Shown piece by piece: positions 2,481 through 61,945 of a stretch of 64,000 nt of DNA (its first letter is position 1; each line of letters starts with the position of its first letter). Both the position numbers and the translations under genes were made by a program. The DNA is taken from the NCBI RefSeq assembly GCF_048403405.1, contig NZ_CP183136.1; one strand, given 5' to 3'. A model generated the notes under the pieces. That model saw only the letters and a program-made list of their open reading frames with translations. It was not told the DNA's origin and ran no database searches. Origin of the DNA: Escherichia coli (GTDB taxonomy: Bacteria; Pseudomonadota; Gammaproteobacteria; Enterobacterales; Enterobacteriaceae).

Positions 2481-2796
2481 TTATCATTTTGCGGCATTGC
2501 TGTGTCGTCTGATATACCTCAATTTCATCAACCGGCTTTCCGGTTGTCTGTAAATATTGTGCCCGCGAAAAATGGTCTGGCAGGAGGCTGCACAGTTACC
2601 GGGTATATATAAGATGGGTTCCCGCTTCGCGGGGCTTCGGCCAGTCAGCATTATCACTCATATGATATTTTTGTGTGTGGCCTTCCATGCCGCTGTCGCG
2701 GCATAACCGGTATTTGACAATGTCTATAAGATTAATTGTTCTGCACACTGTTAATTTGCGGAAAGTGATTTCTTCGTGGTCGGAAGCCGGATGCCT

Positions 2797-3243
2797 TTAC
2801 TGCTTTTTATCCCAGGTATAAATCCGGTAAACCTCTGATGCGTAGGCAAGACGTCTCTGGTTCTGGCGTTCGGTCTTCCTGAATCCGGCATTGTATGCAC
2901 CAACGGCCTCCCAGGTGACGCCCCATTTTTTAAAGGCTATTGCCAGATAATAAGCACCGGTATAAATGTTCATACAGGGATCTGTTGTCAGATGTTCCGG
3001 CTTAATTCCATAGCGGGCCAGTTCGTTAAAATGCTGGGAATCTACCTGCATCAGTCCGCTGCCATATCCCGTTACCGGATTAATACCGATGGCATTAACC
3101 CGGTAACGGGATTCTTGCCATGATATCGCTCTCAGTAAATCCGGGTCTATTTTGTAATCCCGACCTGCAAGATCAAAGCAATCAGTGGCTTCGCAGATCT
3201 CATTTATAAACATCAGGCAGATTGTTAACATCCATTTTTTCAT
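2797..3243 (-). CDS. Lytic transglycosylase (gene X / orf169)
   Basis: SLT-domain-like sequence ([16 protein letters not shown]...GAYNAG); start [10 protein letters not shown] preceded by gaggtgg RBS; N-terminal signal peptide. Confidence 0.85.
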
Positions 3244-3289
3244 TTTTCCACCTCTGGTGACTTTATCCGTAAATAATTTAACCCACTCC

Positions 3290-3660
3290 ACAAAAAGGCT
3301 CAACAGGTTGGTGGTTCTCACCACCAAAAGCACCACACCCTACGCAAAAACAAGTTTTTGCTGATTTTTCTTTAATATCATAGAGTAGTATATGAAAAAT
3401 TAGTATTGTCTTAACTCTCTTTATGATATTTAAAAAAGCGGTCGTCGACGCAGCTACAGCAACGCGCCGACACCGCTTTGTAGGGGTGGTACTGACTATT
3501 TTTATAAAAAACATTATTTTATATTAGGGGTGCTGCTAGCGGCGCGGTGTGTTTTTTTATAGGATACCGTCTAGGGGCGCTGCTAGCGGTGCGTCCCTGT
3601 TTGCACTATGAATTCTAGTGTTTCGAAATTAACTTTGTTTTATGTTTAAAAAAGGTAATA
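3290..3660 (-). other. oriT: oriT, R100-type; nic on minus strand at about 3334/3335
   Basis: Minus strand reads tttttgcgtagggtgtggtgcttttggtggtgagaaccaccaacctgttgagcc, matching the F/R100 nic region from recall; direct repeats taggggtgctgctagcggcgcg and ctaggggcgctgctagcggtgcg (likely TraM sites) upstream of traM. Confidence 0.8.
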
Positions 3661-4245: not shown

Positions 4246-4938
4246 GTATCCGATGGATCGTATTCAACAAAAACATGCTCGTCAAATCAGATCTGCTGGA
4301 AAATCTGACGGCAGTTATTCAGGATTATCCAAATCCAGCCTGTATCAGGGACGAAACTGGAAAATTTATTTTTTGCAATACGCTGTTTCATGAGTCATTT
4401 CTTACACATAGATCAAAGTGCTGAAAAATGGCTTCTGTCGCAGAGAGATTTTTGTGAATTGATCTCTGTCACAGAGATGGAAGCATACAGGAATGAGCAT
4501 ACGCATCTTAATCTTGTAGAGGATGTTTTTATTCAGAACAGATTCTGGACAATATCTGTCCAGTCATTTCTTAATGGACACAGAAATATTATTACTGGTG
4601 GCAATTTTATGATGCTGCTCATGTTCGTCATAAAGACAGTTATAATCAAAAAACGATTGTCAGTGATGATATCAGAAATATAATCAGAAGAATGAGTGAT
4701 GATTCTTCTGTATCATCATATGTAAATGATGTCTTTTACTTATATAGCACCGGAATCAGTCATAATGCTATAGCAAGAATATTAAATATATCCATCTCCA
4801 CATCAAAGATAACACGCATCTCTGATATGCGACTACTTCTCTGTTTCTAATAAAGATGAGTTAATTATCTTACTCTACAATAAAAAGTTTATTTATTATT
4901 TATACGAGAAGGCTATGTGTATCATAAATACGCGTTAA
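4244..4938 (+). pseudogene. traJ: TraJ transfer activator, multiply frameshifted
   Basis: ORFs 4163..4393, 4182..4424 and 4390..4683 in three frames carry consecutive TraJ-like segments (MYPMDRIQQKHARQI / DLLENLTAVIQDYPNPACIRDETGKF / DQSAEKWLLSQRDFCELISVTEMEAYRNEH). Confidence 0.7.
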
Positions 4939-27032: not shown

Positions 27033-29367
27033 ATGAGTTTTAACGCAAAGGATATGACCCAGGGCGGTCAGATTGCGTCCATGCGTATCCGCATGTTCAG
27101 CCAGATCGCCAATATCATGCTTTACTGCCTGTTTATTTTTTTCTGGATACTCGTTGGTCTGGTTTTATGGGTAAAAATAAGCTGGCAGACGTTTGTGAAC
27201 GGCTGTATTTACTGGTGGTGTACCACGCTGGAAGGCATGCGGGATTTAATCAAGTCCCAGCCGGTATATGAGATCCAGTATTACGGCAAAACCTTCCGGA
27301 TGAACGCTGCTCAGGTACTGCATGATAAATATATGATTTGGTGCGGAGAGCAGCTATGGTCCGCATTCGTTCTGGCCACAGTTGTGGCACTGGTTATTTG
27401 CCTGATTACCTTCTTTGTTGTCTCCTGGATTCTGGGGCGTCAGGGTAAACAACAGAGCGAAAATGAAGTCACAGGTGGTCGTCAGCTGACAGACAATCCG
27501 AAAGACGTTGCCCGGATGCTGAAAAAAGACGGCAAGGACTCCGATATCCGGATTGGCGACCTGCCGATTATCCGGGATTCCGAAATCCAGAACTTCTGTC
27601 TGCACGGCACGGTCGGGGCCGGTAAGTCGGAGGTTATCCGTCGTCTGGCCAACTACGCCCGTCAGCGCGGTGATATGGTGGTGATTTATGACCGTTCAGG
27701 GGAATTTGTTAAAAGTTACTATGATCCCTCCATCGATAAAATCCTGAATCCGCTGGATGCCCGCTGTGCCGCATGGGATTTGTGGAAGGAGTGCCTGACA
27801 CAGCCGGATTTTGATAATACCGCAAATACTCTGATCCCGATGGGTACAAAAGAGGACCCGTTCTGGCAGGGTTCAGGACGTACCATTTTTGCGGAAGCGG
27901 CGTACCTGATGCGTAATGACCCCAACCGCAGCTACAGCAAACTGGTGGACACACTGCTTTCCATCAAAATCGAAAAACTGCGTACCTTCCTGCGTAATTC
28001 ACCGGCGGCCAACCTGGTGGAAGAGAAAATCGAGAAAACGGCGATTTCCATCCGTGCTGTGCTGACCAACTACGTGAAAGCCATCCGTTACCTGCAGGGG
28101 ATTGAGCATAACGGTGAGCCCTTCACCATCCGTGACTGGATGCGTGGTGTCCGGGAAGATCAGAAAAACGGCTGGCTGTTTATCTCATCGAACGCCGACA
28201 CCCATGCCTCCCTGAAGCCGGTGATCTCCATGTGGCTGTCCATTGCCATTCGTGGTCTGCTGGCAATGGGAGAAAACCGTAAACGTCGTGTGTGGTTTTT
28301 CTGTGACGAGTTACCCACGTTACACAAACTGCCGGATCTGGTGGAGATCCTGCCGGAAGCCCGTAAGTTCGGTGGCTGTTATGTGTTTGGTATCCAGTCC
28401 TATGCCCAGCTGGAAGATATCTACGGTGAGAAAGCGGCGGCCACGCTGTTTGACGTCATGAACACCCGTGCTTTTTTCCGTTCTCCCGAGCCATAAGATT
28501 GCAGAGTTCGCTGCCGGTGAGATTGGTGAGAAAGAGCACCTGAAAGCCAGCGAGCAGTATTCCTACGGTGCTGATCCGGTACGTGACGGGGTATCGACCG
28601 GTAAGGATATGGAGCGTCAGACGCTGGTCAGTTATTCCGACATTCAGTCTCTGCCGGATCTGACCTGCTATGTCACTCTGCCCGGACCGTATCCGGCAGT
28701 AAAACTCTCTCTGAAATATCAGGCACGACCGAAGGTCGCTCCGGAGTTTATTCCGCGTGACATCAACCCGGAAATGGAGAACCGTCTGAGTGCCGTACTT
28801 GCCGCAAGGGAAGCAGAAGGTCGTCAGATGGCCAGCCTCTTCGAACCGGAGGTTGCCTCCGGAGAAGATGTGACTCAGGCTGAACAGCCACAACAGCCAC
28901 AACAGCCACAACAGCCACAACAGCCACAACAGTCACAACAGCCACAACAGCCACAACAGCCACAACAGCCACAACAGCCACAACAGCCACAACAGCCACA
29001 ACAGCCACAACAGCCACAACAGCCACAACAGCCACAACAGCCACAACAGCCACAACAGCCACAACAGCCACAACAGCCACAACAGCCAGTGTCTCCTGCC
29101 ATCAACGATAAGAAGTCAGATGCAGGTGTGAGTGTTCCGGCAGGGGGGATCGAGCAGGAGCTGAAAATGAAACCGGAAGAAGAGATGGAACAGCAACTGC
29201 CACCCGGGATCAGTGAATCCGGTGAAGTGGTGGATATGGCCGCTTATGAGGCATGGCAACAGGAAAATCATCCGGACACCCAGCAGCAGATGCAGCGTCG
29301 TGAAGAGGTGAACATTAATGTGCACCGGGAGCGCGGGGAGGATGTTGAGCCGGGAGATGATTTCTGA
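27033..29367 (+). pseudogene. traD: TraD coupling protein, one frameshift near 28480
   Basis: ORF 27033..28496 (Walker A GTVGAGKS) and ORF 28468..29367 (continuing ...[23 protein letters not shown]) are adjacent TraD segments in different frames; contains the QQP repeat. Confidence 0.75.
28885..29086 (+). repeat. 9-bp tandem repeat (cagccacaa), about 22 units, encoding the TraD C-terminal QQP tract
   Basis: Directly visible periodicity, with one variant unit cagtcacaa. Confidence 0.9.
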
Positions 29368-40850: not shown

Positions 40851-41298
40851 TTAAACACCTGTTTATATCTCCTTTAAACTACTTAATTACATTCATTTAA
40901 AAAGAAAACCTATTCACTGCCTGTCCTGTGGACAGACAGATATGCACCTCCCACCGCAAGCGGCGGGCCCCGACCGGAGCCATTTTAGTTACAACACTCA
41001 AATACAAGCACCGGGAAAACCCCAGTCCAGCGCAGAACTGAAACCACAAAGCCCCTCCTCATAACTGAAAAGCGGCCCCGCCCCGGCCCGAAGGGCCGGA
41101 ACAGAGTCGCTTTTAATTATGAATGTTGTAACTACATCATCATCGCTGTCAGTCTTCTGGCTGGAAGTTCTCAGTACACGCTCGTAAGCGGCCCTGACGG
41201 CCCGCTAACGCGGAGATACGCCCCGACTTCGGGTAAACCCTCGTCGGGACCACTCCGACCGCGCACAGAAGCTCTCTCATAGCTGAAAACGGGTATAG

Positions 41299-41430
41299 TC
41301 TGGCAGGGCAAGGGATGGGTAAGGTGAAATCTATCAATCAGTACCGGCTTACGCCGGGCTTCGGCGGTTTTACTCCGGTATCACATGTAACCACAGCGTG
41401 CCGCCTTCCATGCCGCTGGCGCGGCATAAG
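41299..41430 (+). repeat. Conserved motif, copy 2 of 3 (gggtaaggtgaaatctatcaatcagtaccggcttacgccgg ... gccttccatgccgctggcgcggcataa)
   Basis: Shares blocks with 49934..50050 and 2620..2710. Confidence 0.5.
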
Positions 41431-49933: not shown

Positions 49934-50050
49934 TGGTCTGGCAGGGCCGGGGGTGGGTAAGGTGAAACCTGTCAATCAGTACCGGCTTACGCCGGTATCA
50001 TATGCAACAACTGAGTGCCGCCTTCCATATCATATCATTTGCCCGTTTCC
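49934..50050 (+). repeat. Conserved motif, copy 3 of 3
   Basis: tctggcagggccgggggtgggtaaggtgaaacctgtcaatcagtaccggcttacgccgg ... tgccgccttccata, similar to 41299..41430. Confidence 0.5.
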
Positions 50051-51063: not shown

Positions 51064-51417
51064 TTAGTTTATTAACTTCATCGCATTCTTTTTTGTCTCC
51101 TCATCACTTTTTTGCTCCGATTGTGAAGAGGACTGAATGATTGTTGAAGAATTTAAATCGGCCATCTCTTTTGGAAATAGCGATCTCAATATATTCACGA
51201 TATCTGAAAATGTGGTTTCTTTCGTCAGCAGTTCACATAAAAGGAAAGGGGCCCTGGGATCTTGTCTGTATAAGGCCAGACCTGCCGTCAGTGCAGCCCG
51301 GTTAAGGCGGCTGCGTTCCCCTTGCGGGATACTGTCCAGTGTATCACAAACAATTTTATCTGTTTGATTTACATCTGGATTTAGCTTAAAGGCAATGGTT
51401 CTGCGCTTGTCCATCAT
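51064..51417 (-). CDS. parR: ParR (StbB) centromere-binding protein
   Basis: 117-aa ORF downstream of parM. Confidence 0.8.
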   Translation of the reverse strand: MMDKRRTIAFKLNPDVNQTDKIVCDTLDSIPQGERSRLNRAALTAGLALYRQDPRAPFLLCELLTKETTFSDIVNILRSLFPKEMADLNSSTIIQSSSQSEQKSDEETKKNAMKLIN

Positions 51418-52379
51418 TAATTACCTATGAGATACATACCGTTAACTAAATCATATTGAGAGTTATTGGTTTTAAAAAAACGTTCATCACGAATCTGTGT
51501 GTGTTTTTTTACTGCATCGCATATTAATTCTGCGCCACCACCTATAACCATAACATGAGTATAACCAGAAAATTCATTGAGTGTATTTAATACACGTTGC
51601 TCAAGTTTACGAAGTGCTTCATTCATTGCTTCGGTGACTATTGATATTTTGTTCTCATCATTAATTCGTTGCTTCAGATAGTTATTATCTTTTCTGTGAA
51701 TAATTATATCATCAGCAAGATAGCTACTTCCTTTTGTTCTCGCAAGAGAAAGGGCATCTTTTACTGCAGATGTGACCAGAGATACACCAAGAGATGAGTC
51801 TCCGTATATTTTACTGATCCCCGATAATTTCCCCATTACCTGAGAAATATCTAATGTGGTGCCCCCGAGATCTATAATTAATAAAGAATCTAACTCATCC
51901 AGTTCTTGTAGAACTTCATAACCTGCCGGTATAGATTCAGGCATGACTTTTACATCTTTTATTGTGAATGTATCCCCACCATTTAATGTAATTTTTTTCC
52001 GGAAGTTTGCTTTCTTACGCTCAATATTTTCCGTATTGGGTTGGTTATTCCTGTCGTAATACTCTGTCAGAGGAAGTGTGCAAACAATATCCACTTCGCT
52101 TACCGGCAGACCACTGGTCAGTAAGGCGTGGTGCACCGCAACGACATTAACGTCGCTGTATTGCCATGCGATATTGGTTGTGACTACAGCATCCGGGCTG
52201 ATTGGATCAAATGAATACTGTTCGCCGTTCAGTGTGTAGTTAAAGACCTTTTTATCACCAAAAGAAACTGCCCACTCGCGTTTGAAGCTGTTCGGGCTAA
52301 TGTGCTGTTTAATTGTTCCGTCGCTTTCCTGCCACTGTAGTTTGATGTTTGTTGAACCGTCATCAATGAATACCAACAT
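51417..52379 (-). CDS. parM: ParM (StbA) actin-like partition ATPase
   Basis: 320 aa, [16 protein letters not shown]... with actin-fold phosphate motifs ([16 protein letters not shown]). Confidence 0.9.
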
Positions 52380-52384
52380 TTATA

Positions 52385-52560
52385 AAACTCCTTATGGTGT
52401 TTTTTTGGTGTTTGTTTGGGTGTGTTTTGGGCTTTAAATGGGTTTATTTGTCAAGTTTACCCCATTTTAACTATCAATCAATGATTATTTGTCTTGTTTT
52501 GGTGTTTTGTTGGGCTTGGTATGGGTTGTTTTTGGGTTTTGTTTGGCGGATAACAAAAGA
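52385..52560 (-). other. parC: parC centromere
   Basis: Tandem short iterons (ggtgtttgtttgg variants) directly upstream of parM. Confidence 0.65.
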
Positions 52561-52870
52561 TGTCGCCGGGCTCCTCTTTTTACTGCGCCGGCTGACGCGG
52601 CGCGGCATAAACGCTGCCTGTGGTCAGTGTCCCGCGTCCGGTGGGCACGGGACGGGCGCTTTTACCGCTCCCGGCTGGCGTCGGTGACAGTGTACGCCAG
52701 CCTGTCGCCCTTTTCTGATGAACGCCCTTCAAGCCGCTTTCGCGGCATAGCCTTGCCGTCAGAAAGACGACGGCTGCGGTATTCCACGGTCGGCCTGACC
52801 CGTTACCGGACGCGGTGAACAGCCCACAGGCAGCGGGGAACGGGCGCCACAGGGGCGCCCTCCCGATGCT
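52555..52870 (+). repeat. About 320-bp leading-region repeat, family 2, copy 1
   Basis: Near-identical to 53855..54185; GC-rich; ends at the start codon of the downstream gene. Confidence 0.8.
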
Positions 52871-52873
52871 CCT

Positions 52874-53815
52874 GTGAGGATAATTCCCATGCCAAACTGG
52901 TGCTCGAATCGTATGTATTTTTCTGGTGAACCGGCACAGATCGCTGAGATTAAACGACTGGCCAGCGGTGCAGTCACACCGCTTTATCGCCGCGCCACAA
53001 ATGAAGGTATTCAGCTGTTTCTGGCCGGAAGTGCCGGACTTCTGCAGATCACTGAAAATATCCGCTCTGAGCAGTGCCCCGGAGTGACGGCTGCCGGACG
53101 TGGTGCTGTATCACTGGAAAATATCGCGTTCACCCGCTGGCTGACACACCTGCAGAACGGTGTACTGCTGGATGAGCAAAACTGCCTGATGCTGCATGAA
53201 CTCTGGCTGCAGAGCGGTACTGGACAGCGTCGCTGGGAAGGGTTACCGGATGATGTCAGGGAAACTATCACTGTGCATTTCACCGCAAAAAGAGGTGACT
53301 GGTGTGACATCTGGGGTAACGAGGATGTATCGGTGTGGTGGAACCGTCTGTGTGACAACGTACTGCCGGAAAAAACCATGCCGTTTGACCTGCTGACGGT
53401 TTTGCCGACCCGCCTGGATATTGAAGTGAATGGCTTTAACGGCGGTGTTCTGAACGGTGTTCCTTCTGCATATCACTGGTATACAGAACGGTATGGCGTG
53501 AAGTGGCCTTGTGGGTATGACCTGAATATCAGCAGTCAGGGGGAAAACTTCATTCAGGTGGATTTCGACACGCCGTGGTGTCAGCCGGAAAGCGACGTTG
53601 TTGCAGAATTAAGCCGCCGTTTCGGCTGCACGCTGGAGCACTGGTACGCCGAACAGGGCTGCAATTTCTGTGGCTGGCAGTTGTATGAGCGCGGAGAGCT
53701 TGTTGATGTGCTGTGGGGGGAACTGGAATGGTCTTCCCCGACAGATGACGATGAGCTGCCGGAAGTCACCGGACCTGCGTGGATAGTCGACAATGTGACG
53801 CATTATGGCGGATGA
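52874..53815 (+). CDS. Hypothetical leading-region protein (313 aa)
   Basis: Long ORF bracketed by the family-2 repeats; no family recognised. Confidence 0.6.
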   Translation: MRIIPMPNWCSNRMYFSGEPAQIAEIKRLASGAVTPLYRRATNEGIQLFLAGSAGLLQITENIRSEQCPGVTAAGRGAVSLENIAFTRWLTHLQNGVLLDEQNCLMLHELWLQSGTGQRRWEGLPDDVRETITVHFTAKRGDWCDIWGNEDVSVWWNRLCDNVLPEKTMPFDLLTVLPTRLDIEVNGFNGGVLNGVPSAYHWYTERYGVKWPCGYDLNISSQGENFIQVDFDTPWCQPESDVVAELSRRFGCTLEHWYAEQGCNFCGWQLYERGELVDVLWGELEWSSPTDDDELPEVTGPAWIVDNVTHYGG

Positions 53816-53854
53816 AGTATGACGGAGACGGGCGGGCAACCGCCCGTTTCTTTT

Positions 53855-54185
53855 CCGACAAAGGATGTCGCCGTGCTCCTCTTTTTACTGCGCCGGCTGA
53901 CGCGGCGCGGCATAAACGCTGCCTGTGGTCAGTGTCCCGCGTCCGGCGGGCACGGGGCGGGCGCTTTTACCGCTCCCGGCTGGCGTCGGTGACAGTGTAC
54001 GCCAGCCCGTCGCCCTTTTCTGATGAACGCCCTTCAAGCCGCTTTCGCGGCATAACCTTGCCGTCAAAAAGACGACGGCTGCGGTATTCCACGGTCGGCC
54101 TGACCCGTTACCGGACGCGGTGAACAGCCCACAGGCAGCGGGGAACGGGCACCACAGGGGTGCCCTCCCGGTGCCCTCTGTAAGA
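53855..54185 (+). repeat. About 320-bp leading-region repeat, family 2, copy 2
   Basis: Near-identical to 52555..52870; abuts the methyltransferase start. Confidence 0.8.
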
Positions 54186-54198
54186 GAAGGAGTTTCGT

Positions 54199-54882
54199 AT
54201 GTCCCGTTTTGTCCTCGGTAACTGCATCGATGTTATGGCCCGTATTCCTGATAACGCCATTGATTTCATCCTCACCGACCCGCCATATCTCGTCGGTTTC
54301 CGTGACCGTTCCGGGCGCACCATCGCCGGCGATAAAACCGATGAGTGGCTGCAACCGGCCTGTAATGAAATGTTCCGCGTGCTGAAAAAAGACGCGTTAA
54401 TGGTGAGCTTCTACGGCTGGAACCGCGTCGATCGCTTTATGGCCGCCTGGAAAAATGCGGGATTCAGCGTTGTTGGTCACCTGGTCTTCACCAAAAACTA
54501 TACATCGAAGGCCGCATATGTGGGCTATCGCCACGAATGCGCCTACATCCTGGCAAAAGGCCGTCCACGTCTGCCACAAAACCCGCTGCCGGACGTGCTG
54601 GGCTGGAAATATTCGGGCAATCGCCATCACCCGACGGAAAAGCCCGTTACCAGCCTGCAACCGCTGATTGAGAGCTTCACACACCCGAACGCAATTGTGC
54701 TGGACCCGTTTGCAGGCAGCGGCTCAACCTGCGTCGCCGCCCTCCAGTCCGGACGCCGGTATATCGGTATCGAGCTGCTTGAGCAGTATCACCGTGCCGG
54801 GCAGCAACGCCTTGCCGCCGTGCAACGGGCCATGCAGCAGGGGGCCGCGAATGATAACTGGTTTATGCCGGAGGCTGCGTAA
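54199..54882 (+). CDS. Orphan DNA methyltransferase (beta-class amino-MTase, DPPY motif)
   Basis: Motifs ILTDPPY and VLDPFAGSGST; no adjacent restriction endonuclease. Confidence 0.8.
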   Translation: MSRFVLGNCIDVMARIPDNAIDFILTDPPYLVGFRDRSGRTIAGDKTDEWLQPACNEMFRVLKKDALMVSFYGWNRVDRFMAAWKNAGFSVVGHLVFTKNYTSKAAYVGYRHECAYILAKGRPRLPQNPLPDVLGWKYSGNRHHPTEKPVTSLQPLIESFTHPNAIVLDPFAGSGSTCVAALQSGRRYIGIELLEQYHRAGQQRLAAVQRAMQQGAANDNWFMPEAA

Positions 54883-56379: not shown

Positions 56380-56790
56380 GCGGGGAAAATCCCCGCCTTT
56401 TTCCTGCCGGTCCCCGGACAGAGCACAAAGGAAGTCGCCGCCGGCTCCGCTTTACCCGGCCATGCGGGGCATGGCCTTGTGGGGGTTCAGTTATGTGGCC
56501 TCAGCGTCGTGTGCGGGCTGTGCCGTGCCTCCATCGTAGCCGGGCTTCTGCGGGCGGGTTGCAAGGTAAGGTGAACCGCTGCGGTCACCCGGTCCCTCCT
56601 TCCCGTCTGCCGTGATTTTCCGGTCGTTCACCCGCTCAGATTTCGCGGTCTCACCCTCCAACTCCCGCCAGCCGTGTGCGTCAGGCTGCGGCTTCCCTTG
56701 CGCCCTTGCAACCCTGCAGGCCCGGCAAAGATGGAGGCACGGCACCGCCCGGTGTCGCGGAATATGTGAACAACGGAGGAAAACATCATG
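56380..56790 (+). promoter_or_regulatory. Structured GC-rich intergenic region upstream of the klcA homologue
   Basis: Long-range inverted repeats (tgccgtgcctccatc at 56519.. pairs with gatggaggcacggca at 56730..; ttgcaagg / ccttgcaa). Confidence 0.5.
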
Positions 56791-57213
56791 CAATATGCGA
56801 AACCTGTCACTCTGAACGTTGAAGAGTGTGACCGTCTCTCCTTTCTGCCTTACCTGTTTGGCAACGATTTTCTGTATGCCGAGGCGTATGTGTACGCGCT
56901 GGCGCAAAAAATGATGCCGGAATATCAGGGAGGCTTCTGGCATTTCATCCGCCTGCCGGACGGTGGCGGTTACATGATGCCGGATGGCGACCGTTTTCAT
57001 CTGGTCAACGGTGAAAACTGGTTTGACCGCACTGTGAGTGCTGATGCCGCAGGTATCATCCTGACTTCCCTTGTGATTAACCGCCAGTTGTGGCTGTACC
57101 ACGACAGCGGGGATGCGGGACTGACACACCTTTACCGGATGCGCGATGCGCAGTTGTGGCGTCACATCGAATTTCACCCCGAATGCAATGCGATTTACGC
57201 GGCACTGGACTGA
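56788..57213 (+). CDS. klcA: KlcA/ArdB-family anti-restriction protein homologue
   Basis: 141 aa, resembles KlcA/ArdB from recall (LSFLPYLFG...[15 protein letters not shown]...[12 protein letters not shown]). Confidence 0.7.
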
Positions 57214-57870: not shown

Positions 57871-58065
57871 TACAGGGCAGGCGGTGGAGGCCGCCTGTCA
57901 GCCCGCGCGAAAACCCCTGGCAGGCTGGCGCCTGCCGGAAGGGAAGCGGGCCACGCTGGCGCGTCGCCCGTTACCCTTCCCGTTTGTGATGTGTCCGGAA
58001 TGTTTTTTCCTGATGTTATGTTTCTGTGGTTACTGTTCTTCTTCTTCCTCTTCTTTCCGTTCCTC

Positions 58066-58603
58066 TCCTGTTTATGCCTTTTCCGGGCGTCCCCCTGGCG
58101 GGGCGGGCTGTCGTGAACGGAGCCAGCGGAGCTGTCTCCGCCCTGGCGGGCTTCCATCCCTGACGCAAAACCCCGGGTTTGCAGCGACCGGAACGGTCGC
58201 GCCACCCCTGTCGCGCCGTGGCCTGCGCTCCCGGCATCCCGGCAAAAAGACGCCGGGATGTAAGGAGCAACGCCGTTTCGCAAACCGCGCTTCACGTCGT
58301 TGCAGCGGGTCCCTGCTCATTGCCTGCCGGGTGCCACACACCCGTATGAGTCCCTGTCGCCGGGGGCTGATACAGCCACAACCTGCCGCACTGACTGTCC
58401 AGGGTAAATGAACAGCCCACAAAATTTTTTACCCAAAACCCGGTAAAAAATTTTGCGTTCTGCCCAGGACAGGTGCGTCAGGCCGTGGCAGTGATGCCCC
58501 TTGCGGCGAAGGTTCTCAAACGGGTGAAGTTCATACCACAGGGAATACAGCAGCAGGTTCCCGCGAAACGTCAAAACCGCGGCTCCCGAAACTCAACGGG
58601 TGA
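58066..58603 (+). repeat. Frpo-like leading-region repeat, copy B
   Basis: Near-identical to copy C at 61376..61908 and similar to copy A. Confidence 0.8.
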
Positions 58604-58837
58604 TGTTCTTTAAAAATCAGGATTTATTTCAGGCTCCGGCAATACGCATTTATGTGTTCTGTCAGTCATCCGGCTGGCAGGTAATGAAAACGCAGGAACA
58701 GAAGGAGGAAAACACCGGAAAGCGTCAGATGCAGATATGAAAAAAAGCAGGTCAGGGACCTGCTTAATCCACGCCGTAAGAATTGTGCGACCAATTTTGA
58801 CGGCATTGTTAACCAATTTGTCATAAGGAATCCATTT

Positions 58838-61091: not shown

Positions 61092-61270
61092 TGACTCCGG
61101 GCAGGCGGGAGGATAAATGCCCGTCTGCCCGCGCCGGGAAAAGACCGCGCGCCGGTGGCGCTGAAAGGGGCCGCGCTTACGCGCCGCCCCTTTCATTACG
61201 CGGACGTTCTGCTGTGGGCTTCTGTCTTTTCAGACCTGTCATTTGCTTGTTACTGATGATGTTGTTGTTC

Positions 61271-61327
61271 CTGCTACTGCTACTGCTACTGCTACTGCTA
61301 CTGCTACTGCTACTGCTACTGCTACTG
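61271..61327 (+). repeat. Hexanucleotide microsatellite (CTGCTA), about 9.5 units
   Basis: Directly visible perfect period-6 repeat. Confidence 0.95.
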
Positions 61328-61375
61328 TTCTTCTTTTTTCTGCTGCTCTGATTACTGTCTGTTTTGTTGTTCTCC

Positions 61376-61908
61376 TGCTTATGCCTTTTCCGGGCGTCCC
61401 CCTGGCGGGGCGGGCTGTCGTGAACGGAGCCAGCGGAGCTGTCTCCGCCCTGGCGGGCTTCCATCCCTGACGCAAAAACCCGGGTTTGCAGCGACCGGAA
61501 CGGTCGCGCCACCCTTGTCGCGCCGTGGCCTGCGCTCCCGGCATCCCGGCAAAAGACGCCGGGATGTAAGGAGCAACGCCGTTTCGCAAACCGCGCTTCA
61601 CGTCGTTGCGGCGGGTCCCTGCCCGTTGTTCTGTCCGGTGCCATTCACCTGTTTAAGCCCCTGTCGCCGGGGGCATAGACAGCCACAACCTGCCGCACTG
61701 ACTGTCCAGGGTAAATGAACAGCCCACAAAATTTTTTACCCAAAACCCGGTAAAAAATTTTGCGTTCTGCCCAGGACAGGTGCGTCAGGCCGTGGCAGTG
61801 ATGCCCCATGCGGCGAAGGTTCTCAAACAGGTGATGGTGAATACCGGAGGGAACAAAAGGCAGGTCCCCGCAAAACGTCAAAACCGCGGCTCCCGAAACT
61901 CAACAGAT
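61376..61908 (+). repeat. Frpo-like leading-region repeat, copy C, upstream of ssb
   Basis: Near-identical to copy B; ends about 40 bp before the ssb start. Confidence 0.8.
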
Positions 61909-61945
61909 GATGGGGGCTGAAAACATCAACAGAAGGAGACACATC

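Follow-up and report, generated by a model that had tools for sequence, protein, structure and literature searches.

The closest described relatives of the locus reported here are the hairpin promoters that act on single-stranded DNA (ssDNA) in the IncI1 plasmid pESBL-EA11 (hereafter pESBL) and in plasmid F. Wen et al. (2025, Nucleic Acids Research; PMC12672017) profiled the transcription of both plasmids in fresh transconjugants; six operons were induced, each with a hairpin of the transferred (T) strand upstream, and start sites were obtained by 5' rapid amplification of cDNA ends (5' RACE). Class 1 of these hairpins comprises Frpo and ssi1-3, class 2 those upstream of klcA and ardA, and class 3 the one 5' of M.EcoGIX, which is described as unlike all of the others and as conserved in F; for this class 3 element of pESBL and F, zygotic induction in transconjugants and a +1 position by 5' RACE are reported. 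Fraikin et al. (2026, bioRxiv) named the element ssp3 and described it as an ssDNA promoter as strong as ssp2 that, unlike ssp2, is not a replication roadblock. An ssDNA promoter upstream of ecoGIXM had already been assumed by Fomenkov et al. (2020), and M.EcoGIX of pESBL is an ssDNA-specific N6-methyladenine (m6A) methylase. Here, we describe a 64,000-nucleotide stretch of DNA from Escherichia coli (contig NZ_CP183136.1 of NCBI RefSeq assembly GCF_048403405.1), referred to throughout as the window, in which two direct repeats, copies A and B, stand before a DUF1281 gene and an M.EcoGIX-type methylase gene, respectively. Taking the explanation as a whole, both repeats are very probably copies of the published class 3 promoter of F-like and I1-like plasmids. 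The repeat family and its interpretation are already known; what is new is the second copy, before the DUF1281 gene of unknown function.

Homology of the repeats to the class 3 promoter

Copies A (52553-52868) and B (53858-54173) are 316 nt each and are identical at 306 of these positions (96.8%); blastn and nhmmer initially detected 52553-52852 and 53858-54157 at 97%, and the match could be extended to 316 nt. The GC content of either copy is 66.1%, compared with 50.9% for the window, and each contains an imperfect inverted repeat of 30-31 nt (52612-52642/52805-52835 in copy A, 53917-53946/54111-54140 in copy B), in agreement with the initial annotation of two nearly identical, GC-rich repeats rich in inverted repeats. 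Sensitive blastn and nhmmer searches of the window revealed no third or diverged copy. Both copies match the region 5' of M.EcoGIX in pESBL, and that 5' of the F methylase (plasmid F sequence NC_002483), with no less than 95% identity and are thus homologous to the hairpin that exemplifies class 3; nhmmer with the class 3 element gave E values of 1e-96 (pESBL) and 3e-90 (F) and recovered both copies from the window.

The mining criterion of Wen et al. was then rerun (300-nt windows, DNA parameters, T strand, below -75 kcal/mol). From pESBL it returned exactly the six regions already published, one of them directly 5' of M.EcoGIX, and the class 3 of Wen et al. is therefore this element; the region upstream of the pESBL DUF1281 gene was absent from the output, its energy of -70.5 kcal/mol being above the threshold. 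From our window it returned copy A at -93.6 and copy B at -95.6 kcal/mol, together with a class 2 hairpin at 56440-56809 and three class 1 regions. Position and strand correspond as well. The position of traM and traJ at ~3.6-4.2 kb and the plus-strand location of the tra genes place the leading region at 52.5-64 kb plus 1-3.5 kb. Its genes at 52.9-64 kb are on the plus strand too; given their orientation and where oriT and the tra genes lie, the minus strand is the T strand and also serves as template for the leading genes. Both copies occupy leading-region sites upstream of a gene for which the transferred strand is the template. The earlier suggestion that the repeats are single-strand promoter modules on the transferred (minus) strand therefore gains support from their identity with a published promoter. 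Copy B has the same position (5' of the methylase gene) and strand as the class 3 element of pESBL and F and satisfies the same energy criterion; those plasmids have one copy, whereas the present plasmid lineage has a second, the paralogous copy A, before DUF1281 and directly beside parC. The features of the locus are as follows.

52553..52868, minus strand (the functional, transferred strand): copy A, probable class 3 (ssp3-type) ssDNA promoter module, between the parC iterons and the DUF1281 gene
52889..53815, plus strand: DUF1281 gene, most likely of 308 amino acids (yccB in R100-style naming), between copies A and B
53824..53851, plus strand: intrinsic-terminator-like stem-loop, then UUUCUUUU, 3' of the DUF1281 gene and conserved in F and pESBL
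53858..54173, minus strand: copy B, probable class 3 module, 5' of the M.EcoGIX-type methylase gene; orthologue of the characterized pESBL/F element
54199..54882, plus strand: gene for a beta-class N6-adenine DNA methylase of 227 amino acids with a DPPY motif, 95% identical to pESBL M.EcoGIX

The repeats do not end directly before the start codons, as had been annotated, but stop ~20 nt (copy A, ATG 52889) and ~25 nt (copy B, ATG 54199) upstream of them. Similarly, the DUF1281 gene had been read as a 313-amino acid open reading frame (ORF) from GTG 52874; the annotation of identical plasmids and alignment with F and pESBL make ATG 52889 the most likely start. The stem-loop at 53824-53851, which is strong on folding and was passed over by a simple terminator scan, separates the DUF1281 and methylase transcription units. 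RefSeq records of identical plasmids carry hypothetical-protein annotations for two ORFs that run over the repeats, 52489-52818 and 53779-54123; these are probably spurious gene calls, since their frame is interrupted in the homologues by indels of 1, 2, and 11 nt.

Class 1, the Frpo and ssi1-3 elements that were reportedly described by Masai and Arai in 1997, by Bates et al. in 1999, and by Couturier et al. in 2023, shares its principle and geometry with class 3, i.e., a T-strand hairpin upstream of leading genes that is active only as ssDNA, whereas class 3 is more GC-rich, has a three-way-junction fold in place of the AT-rich apex, and lacks canonical hexamers. Frpo-type modules are present in the window at ~519-1148, 58019-58617, and 61326-61924. 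Queries with class 1 sequences (F ssiD/Frpo and ColIb ssi1-3) recovered 519-1148, 58025-58615, and 61326-61924 but gave no match in 52553-54198, and the reciprocal search was also negative; that the repeats form a family separate from Frpo, as first proposed, is borne out by this lack of sequence homology in either direction. The class 2 copy of the window (~56425-56790; hairpin region 56440-56809, with arms at 56514-56545 and 56720-56751) lies upstream of a klcA-type antirestriction gene. Class 2 (ssp2 or "Frpo3," found upstream of klcA/ardB and ardA) has the same role, but its core sequence differs from that of class 3: a query with the klcA/ardA upstream hairpin had no match to the repeats, only a ~27-nt terminal motif being in common. 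Both classes do share AAGGATGTCGC, accompanied by a small hairpin, at their upstream end and a TGTRAG motif ahead of the ribosome-binding site. In all, the leading region contains six hairpin-promoter regions: three of class 1, one of class 2, and two of class 3.

In plus sense, AAGGATGTCGC is found at 52555-52577, 53860-53882, and 56425-56453, where its T strand folds into a hairpin of 6 bp, and it also ends the candidates Frpo'4 and Frpo*3 of Samuel et al.; possible roles are those of a cassette boundary, a priming signal, or a site for protein binding. Inspection of the Frpo candidate list of Samuel et al. revealed class 1-like and class 2-like sequences with a shared terminal motif; no class 3 sequence was seen in it, by eye only.

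It is possible, but unlikely, that the main function of the modules is to initiate (prime) synthesis of the complementary strand, as single-strand initiation signals, and that transcription is secondary. In class 1, Frpo transcripts act as primers for DNA synthesis in vitro and, as reported by Fraikin et al., also in vivo; furthermore, the side arm and the loop of the terminal hairpin in the fold described below show more conservation than would seem necessary for a promoter alone. The published data on class 3, however, consist of mRNA induction and start sites, and Fraikin et al. use ssp3 purely as a promoter replacement, devoid of roadblock activity. Priming and promoter functions are, of course, compatible with each other.

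The second copy and a possible exchange of modules

A different sequence of ~300 bp stands before the DUF1281 gene of F and pESBL; in the present lineage, its place is taken by the class 3 copy, and the junction of the replacement is a short TGTGAG/TGTAAG motif just before the ribosome-binding site. The junction of class 3 to DUF1281, i.e., the arrangement found here, occurs in 364 PLSDB records, the F-type upstream region joined to DUF1281 in 4060, and the junction of parC to class 3 in 1627. The region upstream of DUF1281 in F and pESBL (4560-4856 and 3184-3472, respectively, of the compared segments) aligns with class 2 in conserved blocks, and its hairpin is shorter (-65.5 kcal/mol, z = -3.75), missing the -75 threshold; it may be a weak or decayed, previously unrecognized ssDNA promoter. 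Conversely, a class-2-like module precedes the methylase homologue in two Salmonella plasmid contigs (positions 2719-2995 of the compared segments). With class 3 before DUF1281 here and a class-2-like module before the Salmonella methylase, promoter modules thus appear to have been exchanged between leading genes. In two Erwinia plasmid contigs, the region upstream of the methylase gene (2670-3000 of the compared segments) folds at about -84 kcal/mol on the T strand; nhmmer with queries from classes 1 to 3 found no match in one of these contigs and one weak, short class 2 match (E = 0.002) in the other, and this hairpin may represent a further class of promoter.

Copies A and B differ in 17 aligned columns, 10 of which are within the repeat and 7 in unrelated sequence past its end. 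Two of the 10 form a compensatory pair, a further two keep a standard pair (G·T for G-C and A-T for G·T), and the other six fall in unpaired columns, most of which also vary among other homologues. Judged by its sequence, copy A looks functional. It is distinctly improbable that copy A is a passive by-product of recombination, relevant only as a substrate for deleting DUF1281. The smaller number of PLSDB records for its junction (364 versus 4060 for the F-type) and the occurrence of plasmids with a single copy between parC and the methylase gene would fit such an origin, but copy A has kept every invariant column of the family, its changes relative to copy B are a compensatory pair or otherwise lie at variable or unpaired positions or leave a standard pair (G·T), and its distance to the ribosome-binding site is the same as that of copy B.

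The pair had also been thought capable of deleting the intervening gene by homologous recombination. When parC, a single copy, and the methylase gene are joined artificially, the resulting sequence aligns in one uninterrupted stretch with many plasmids; recombination between copies A and B would be expected to give this form, but it could equally be the ancestral state. The idea of deletion is therefore consistent with plasmids that exist in nature, which would fit acquisition of DUF1281 equally well. Relative to pESBL and F, copies A and B have mosaic patterns of single-nucleotide polymorphisms, which consequently give no evidence on whether the single-copy plasmids arose by deletion.

Fold of the transferred strand and a candidate promoter

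Folded as minus-strand ssDNA, copies A and B are far more stable than their shuffled sequences (z = -6.6 and -6.0, respectively). For comparison, distant methylase homologues of 78-88% identity were found via a protein database and the upstream modules were taken from their contigs; the resulting alignment of ten sequences covers plasmids of Escherichia, Klebsiella-type, Serratia, Edwardsiella, and Pectobacterium origin and a metagenome contig, and six diverged homologues within the set support a branched hairpin. The consensus T-strand fold has 90 pairs. The small gene-proximal hairpin comes first, followed by the long imperfect stem (columns 52-82 with 247-278) and a 5-bp helix that leads into a three-way junction with arms at columns 89-158 and 160-235 (the second at 52654-52727 in copy A), and there is a small terminal hairpin. 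Both sides have changed in 21 of the 90 pairs, whereas shuffles gave 11.7 +/- 1.8 (0 of 500 reached the observed value) and slid controls 0-4; standard pairs occupy 97.4% of the cells of the alignment. Wobble pairs are asymmetric on the T strand (39 G·T versus 4 A·C cells), which also has the lower consensus energy (-65.0 versus -55.2 for the plus strand) and is the more stable in 10 of 10 sequences; these observations favor assigning the conserved fold to the T strand, not to the mRNA-sense strand. Folding of the minus strand, proposed in the initial annotation as a check, has thus yielded a stable structure with both covariation support and a preference for that strand. The elements of the fold, and the promoter positions proposed from it, are listed below.

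52612..52642, minus strand: copy A, long stem, 3' arm on the T strand; non-template arm in the model, with the invariant mismatch bubble and the proposed -10
52805..52835, minus strand: copy A, long stem, 5' arm on the T strand; template arm in the model, with the predicted start inside
53917..53947, minus strand: copy B, long stem, 3' arm, with the proposed -10 inside
54110..54140, minus strand: copy B, long stem, 5' (template) arm, with the predicted start inside
52729..52798 (A) and 54034..54103 (B), minus strand: nearly invariant side arm of the three-way junction (columns 89-158)
52837..52863 (A) and 54142..54168 (B), minus strand: small gene-proximal hairpin, with one compensatory G-C to A-T change between A and B
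52555..52577 (A) and 53860..53882 (B), minus strand: small terminal hairpin of 6 bp with a conserved 11-nt loop
52732-52729 (TTGA) and 52651-52650 (CC), minus strand: putative composite -35 of copy A
52631-52626 (A) and 53936-53931 (B), minus strand: proposed -10, GACACT

The G·T wobble of the terminal hairpin is invariant in the ten class 3 homologues. The invariant core of the side arm has GCCGCGAAAGCGGC on the T strand (52733-52746 in copy A, 54038-54051 in copy B). The motif d(GCGAAAGC) is known for unusually stable DNA mini-hairpins, and its occurrence in GCCGCGAAAGCGGC is predicted to compete with the side-arm pairing of the consensus.

In the mechanism that we propose, the minus strand enters the recipient first, as ssDNA, during conjugation, and each ~316-nt module would fold into the branched hairpin, the long imperfect stem of which, closed by the three-way junction, would serve the host RNA polymerase as a promoter. 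Transcription would proceed outward, from the junction to the base of the stem and into the downstream gene, with the transferred strand as template, and complementary-strand synthesis would remove the hairpin and turn the promoter off; because the promoter would exist only in the ssDNA phase, the methylase, and here also DUF1281, would be expressed early and briefly. The template would be continuous from column 96 down to column 52, along the helix of the side arm, the 5-bp helix, and the long stem. With the helices stacked, the non-template TTGA (columns 155-158) would abut CC (columns 238-239) across the junction to give a composite -35, TTGACC, and the -10, NA(C/G)ACT at columns 259-264, would lie on the non-template arm 18 nt downstream of it. 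The long stem is mismatched at a single place, by a T·T mismatch and a further mismatch of 3 nt, and this is where the proposed -10 falls. Within this bubble, A.ACTG.C on one side and CTGT opposite it are invariant, including the critical A at position 2 and T at position 6 of the -10, and the flanking stem pairs covary. The predicted +1, at ~52828 in copy A and ~54133 in copy B (plus sense), is a purine in all homologues and would yield leaders of ~61 and ~66 nt that include the small hairpin; its pESBL equivalent would be the A of ACAGGCAGCG in the gene-proximal arm. In duplex form, the same region reads (C/T)TGACC-17-(A/T)ACAG(C/G) and lacks the final T of the -10, which would account for silence after second-strand synthesis. 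The AT-rich apex next to -35-like and -10-like hexamers in class 1 sequences suggests the same geometry for that class.

A different -10, TA(C/A)A(C/A)T in the loop of a small hairpin, scored highest on the T strand in a position-weight scan over the homologues; it was rejected because its -35 is not conserved and because it would direct a promoter into a hairpin loop with no template opposite the start.

Several points weigh against our interpretation. The ten sequences fall into about two clades, and independent substitution events are consequently few; the advantage of the T strand is small in some of them (0.2 kcal/mol in pESBL), and covariation alone does not separate a DNA fold from an antisense-RNA fold. 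The -35, -10, and +1 assignments are candidates derived from the fold and its conservation, not from the published boxes or +1. A plain sigma-70 consensus scan of both strands found no site, and the proposed -10 matches the consensus at only three of six positions, with a spacer of 18 nt (19 in F). Finally, the case for the present plasmid is one of sequence and predicted fold, and copy A stands in a new context beside parC.

That the conserved fold acts not as DNA but in the mRNA, as a structured 5' leader affecting translation or stability, is very improbable. The covariation would fit an RNA fold of the sense transcript equally well, and the small gene-proximal hairpin would be within the leader if the proposed start site is correct, but the excess of G·T over A·C cells and the folding energies favor the antisense (T) strand, and an Rfam covariance-model scan at the gathering score, which gave seven matches in the window, gave none in 52-55 kb. 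In addition, the terminator lies just upstream of copy B, and read-through transcripts spanning the whole module are therefore unlikely. The idea that the repeats are remnants of an insertion sequence (IS), a miniature inverted-repeat transposable element, or a transposon, or that they encode the 103-amino acid hypothetical proteins annotated across them by the Prokaryotic Genome Annotation Pipeline (PGAP), can practically be dismissed: inverted repeats are present, but they are internal and not terminal, there is no transposase or other IS or transposon signature and no match elsewhere in the window, both of the only two copies are in promoter position, the element is syntenic with the methylase gene across genera and diverges in step with it, and the indels noted above break any reading frame.

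More speculative, and rather doubtful at present, is a general scheme in which leading-region ssDNA promoters are exchangeable cassettes, bounded upstream by AAGGATGTCGC with its small G·T hairpin and downstream by TGTRAG before the ribosome-binding site, such that recombination at these ends would reassign genes between classes (here, DUF1281 from a weak class-2-like module to class 3); separately, the class 3 -35 would be built across a three-way DNA junction, an architecture that has not been described for class 1.

Plasmid context and significance

The window represents most of an IncFII F-like conjugative plasmid, with FinP/traJ, traM, the tra operon, CopA/repA, and a microcin B17 cluster, and it is identical over the queried region to ~70-kb plasmids of E. 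coli and Klebsiella. Immediately to the left of the repeats are parM (51417-52379, minus strand) and parR, and copy A begins 3 nt past the last iteron of the following feature.

52386..52550: parC-type centromere and promoter of the divergent parMR operon, with 11-bp iterons in two clusters; bounds copy A on the left

Three other repeats were observed in the window. A direct repeat of ~110 bp with 86-92% identity (41298-41411 and 49936-50028) flanks a stretch that includes the microcin B17 cluster, and the pair could mark a recombination module. A long array of 9-bp tandem repeats is found within the tra region (28831-29133), and a CTG/CTA-type trinucleotide-like array (61248-61355) lies just upstream of the class 1 module that precedes ssb.

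To what was already published, the present analysis adds independent comparative support for the fold, from covariation and strand asymmetry, and a concrete model both of the RNA polymerase binding site and of duplex silence. It also adds evidence of promoter-module swapping, with class 3 before DUF1281 in 364 plasmids and a class-2-like module before the methylase gene in Salmonella, as well as a natural two-copy/one-copy pair in which recombinational loss of DUF1281 can be studied. The element itself controls the early, transient production of an ssDNA-specific methylase that shields incoming plasmids from restriction, a role that is already published, and because of that protection it bears on the establishment of resistance plasmids in new hosts.

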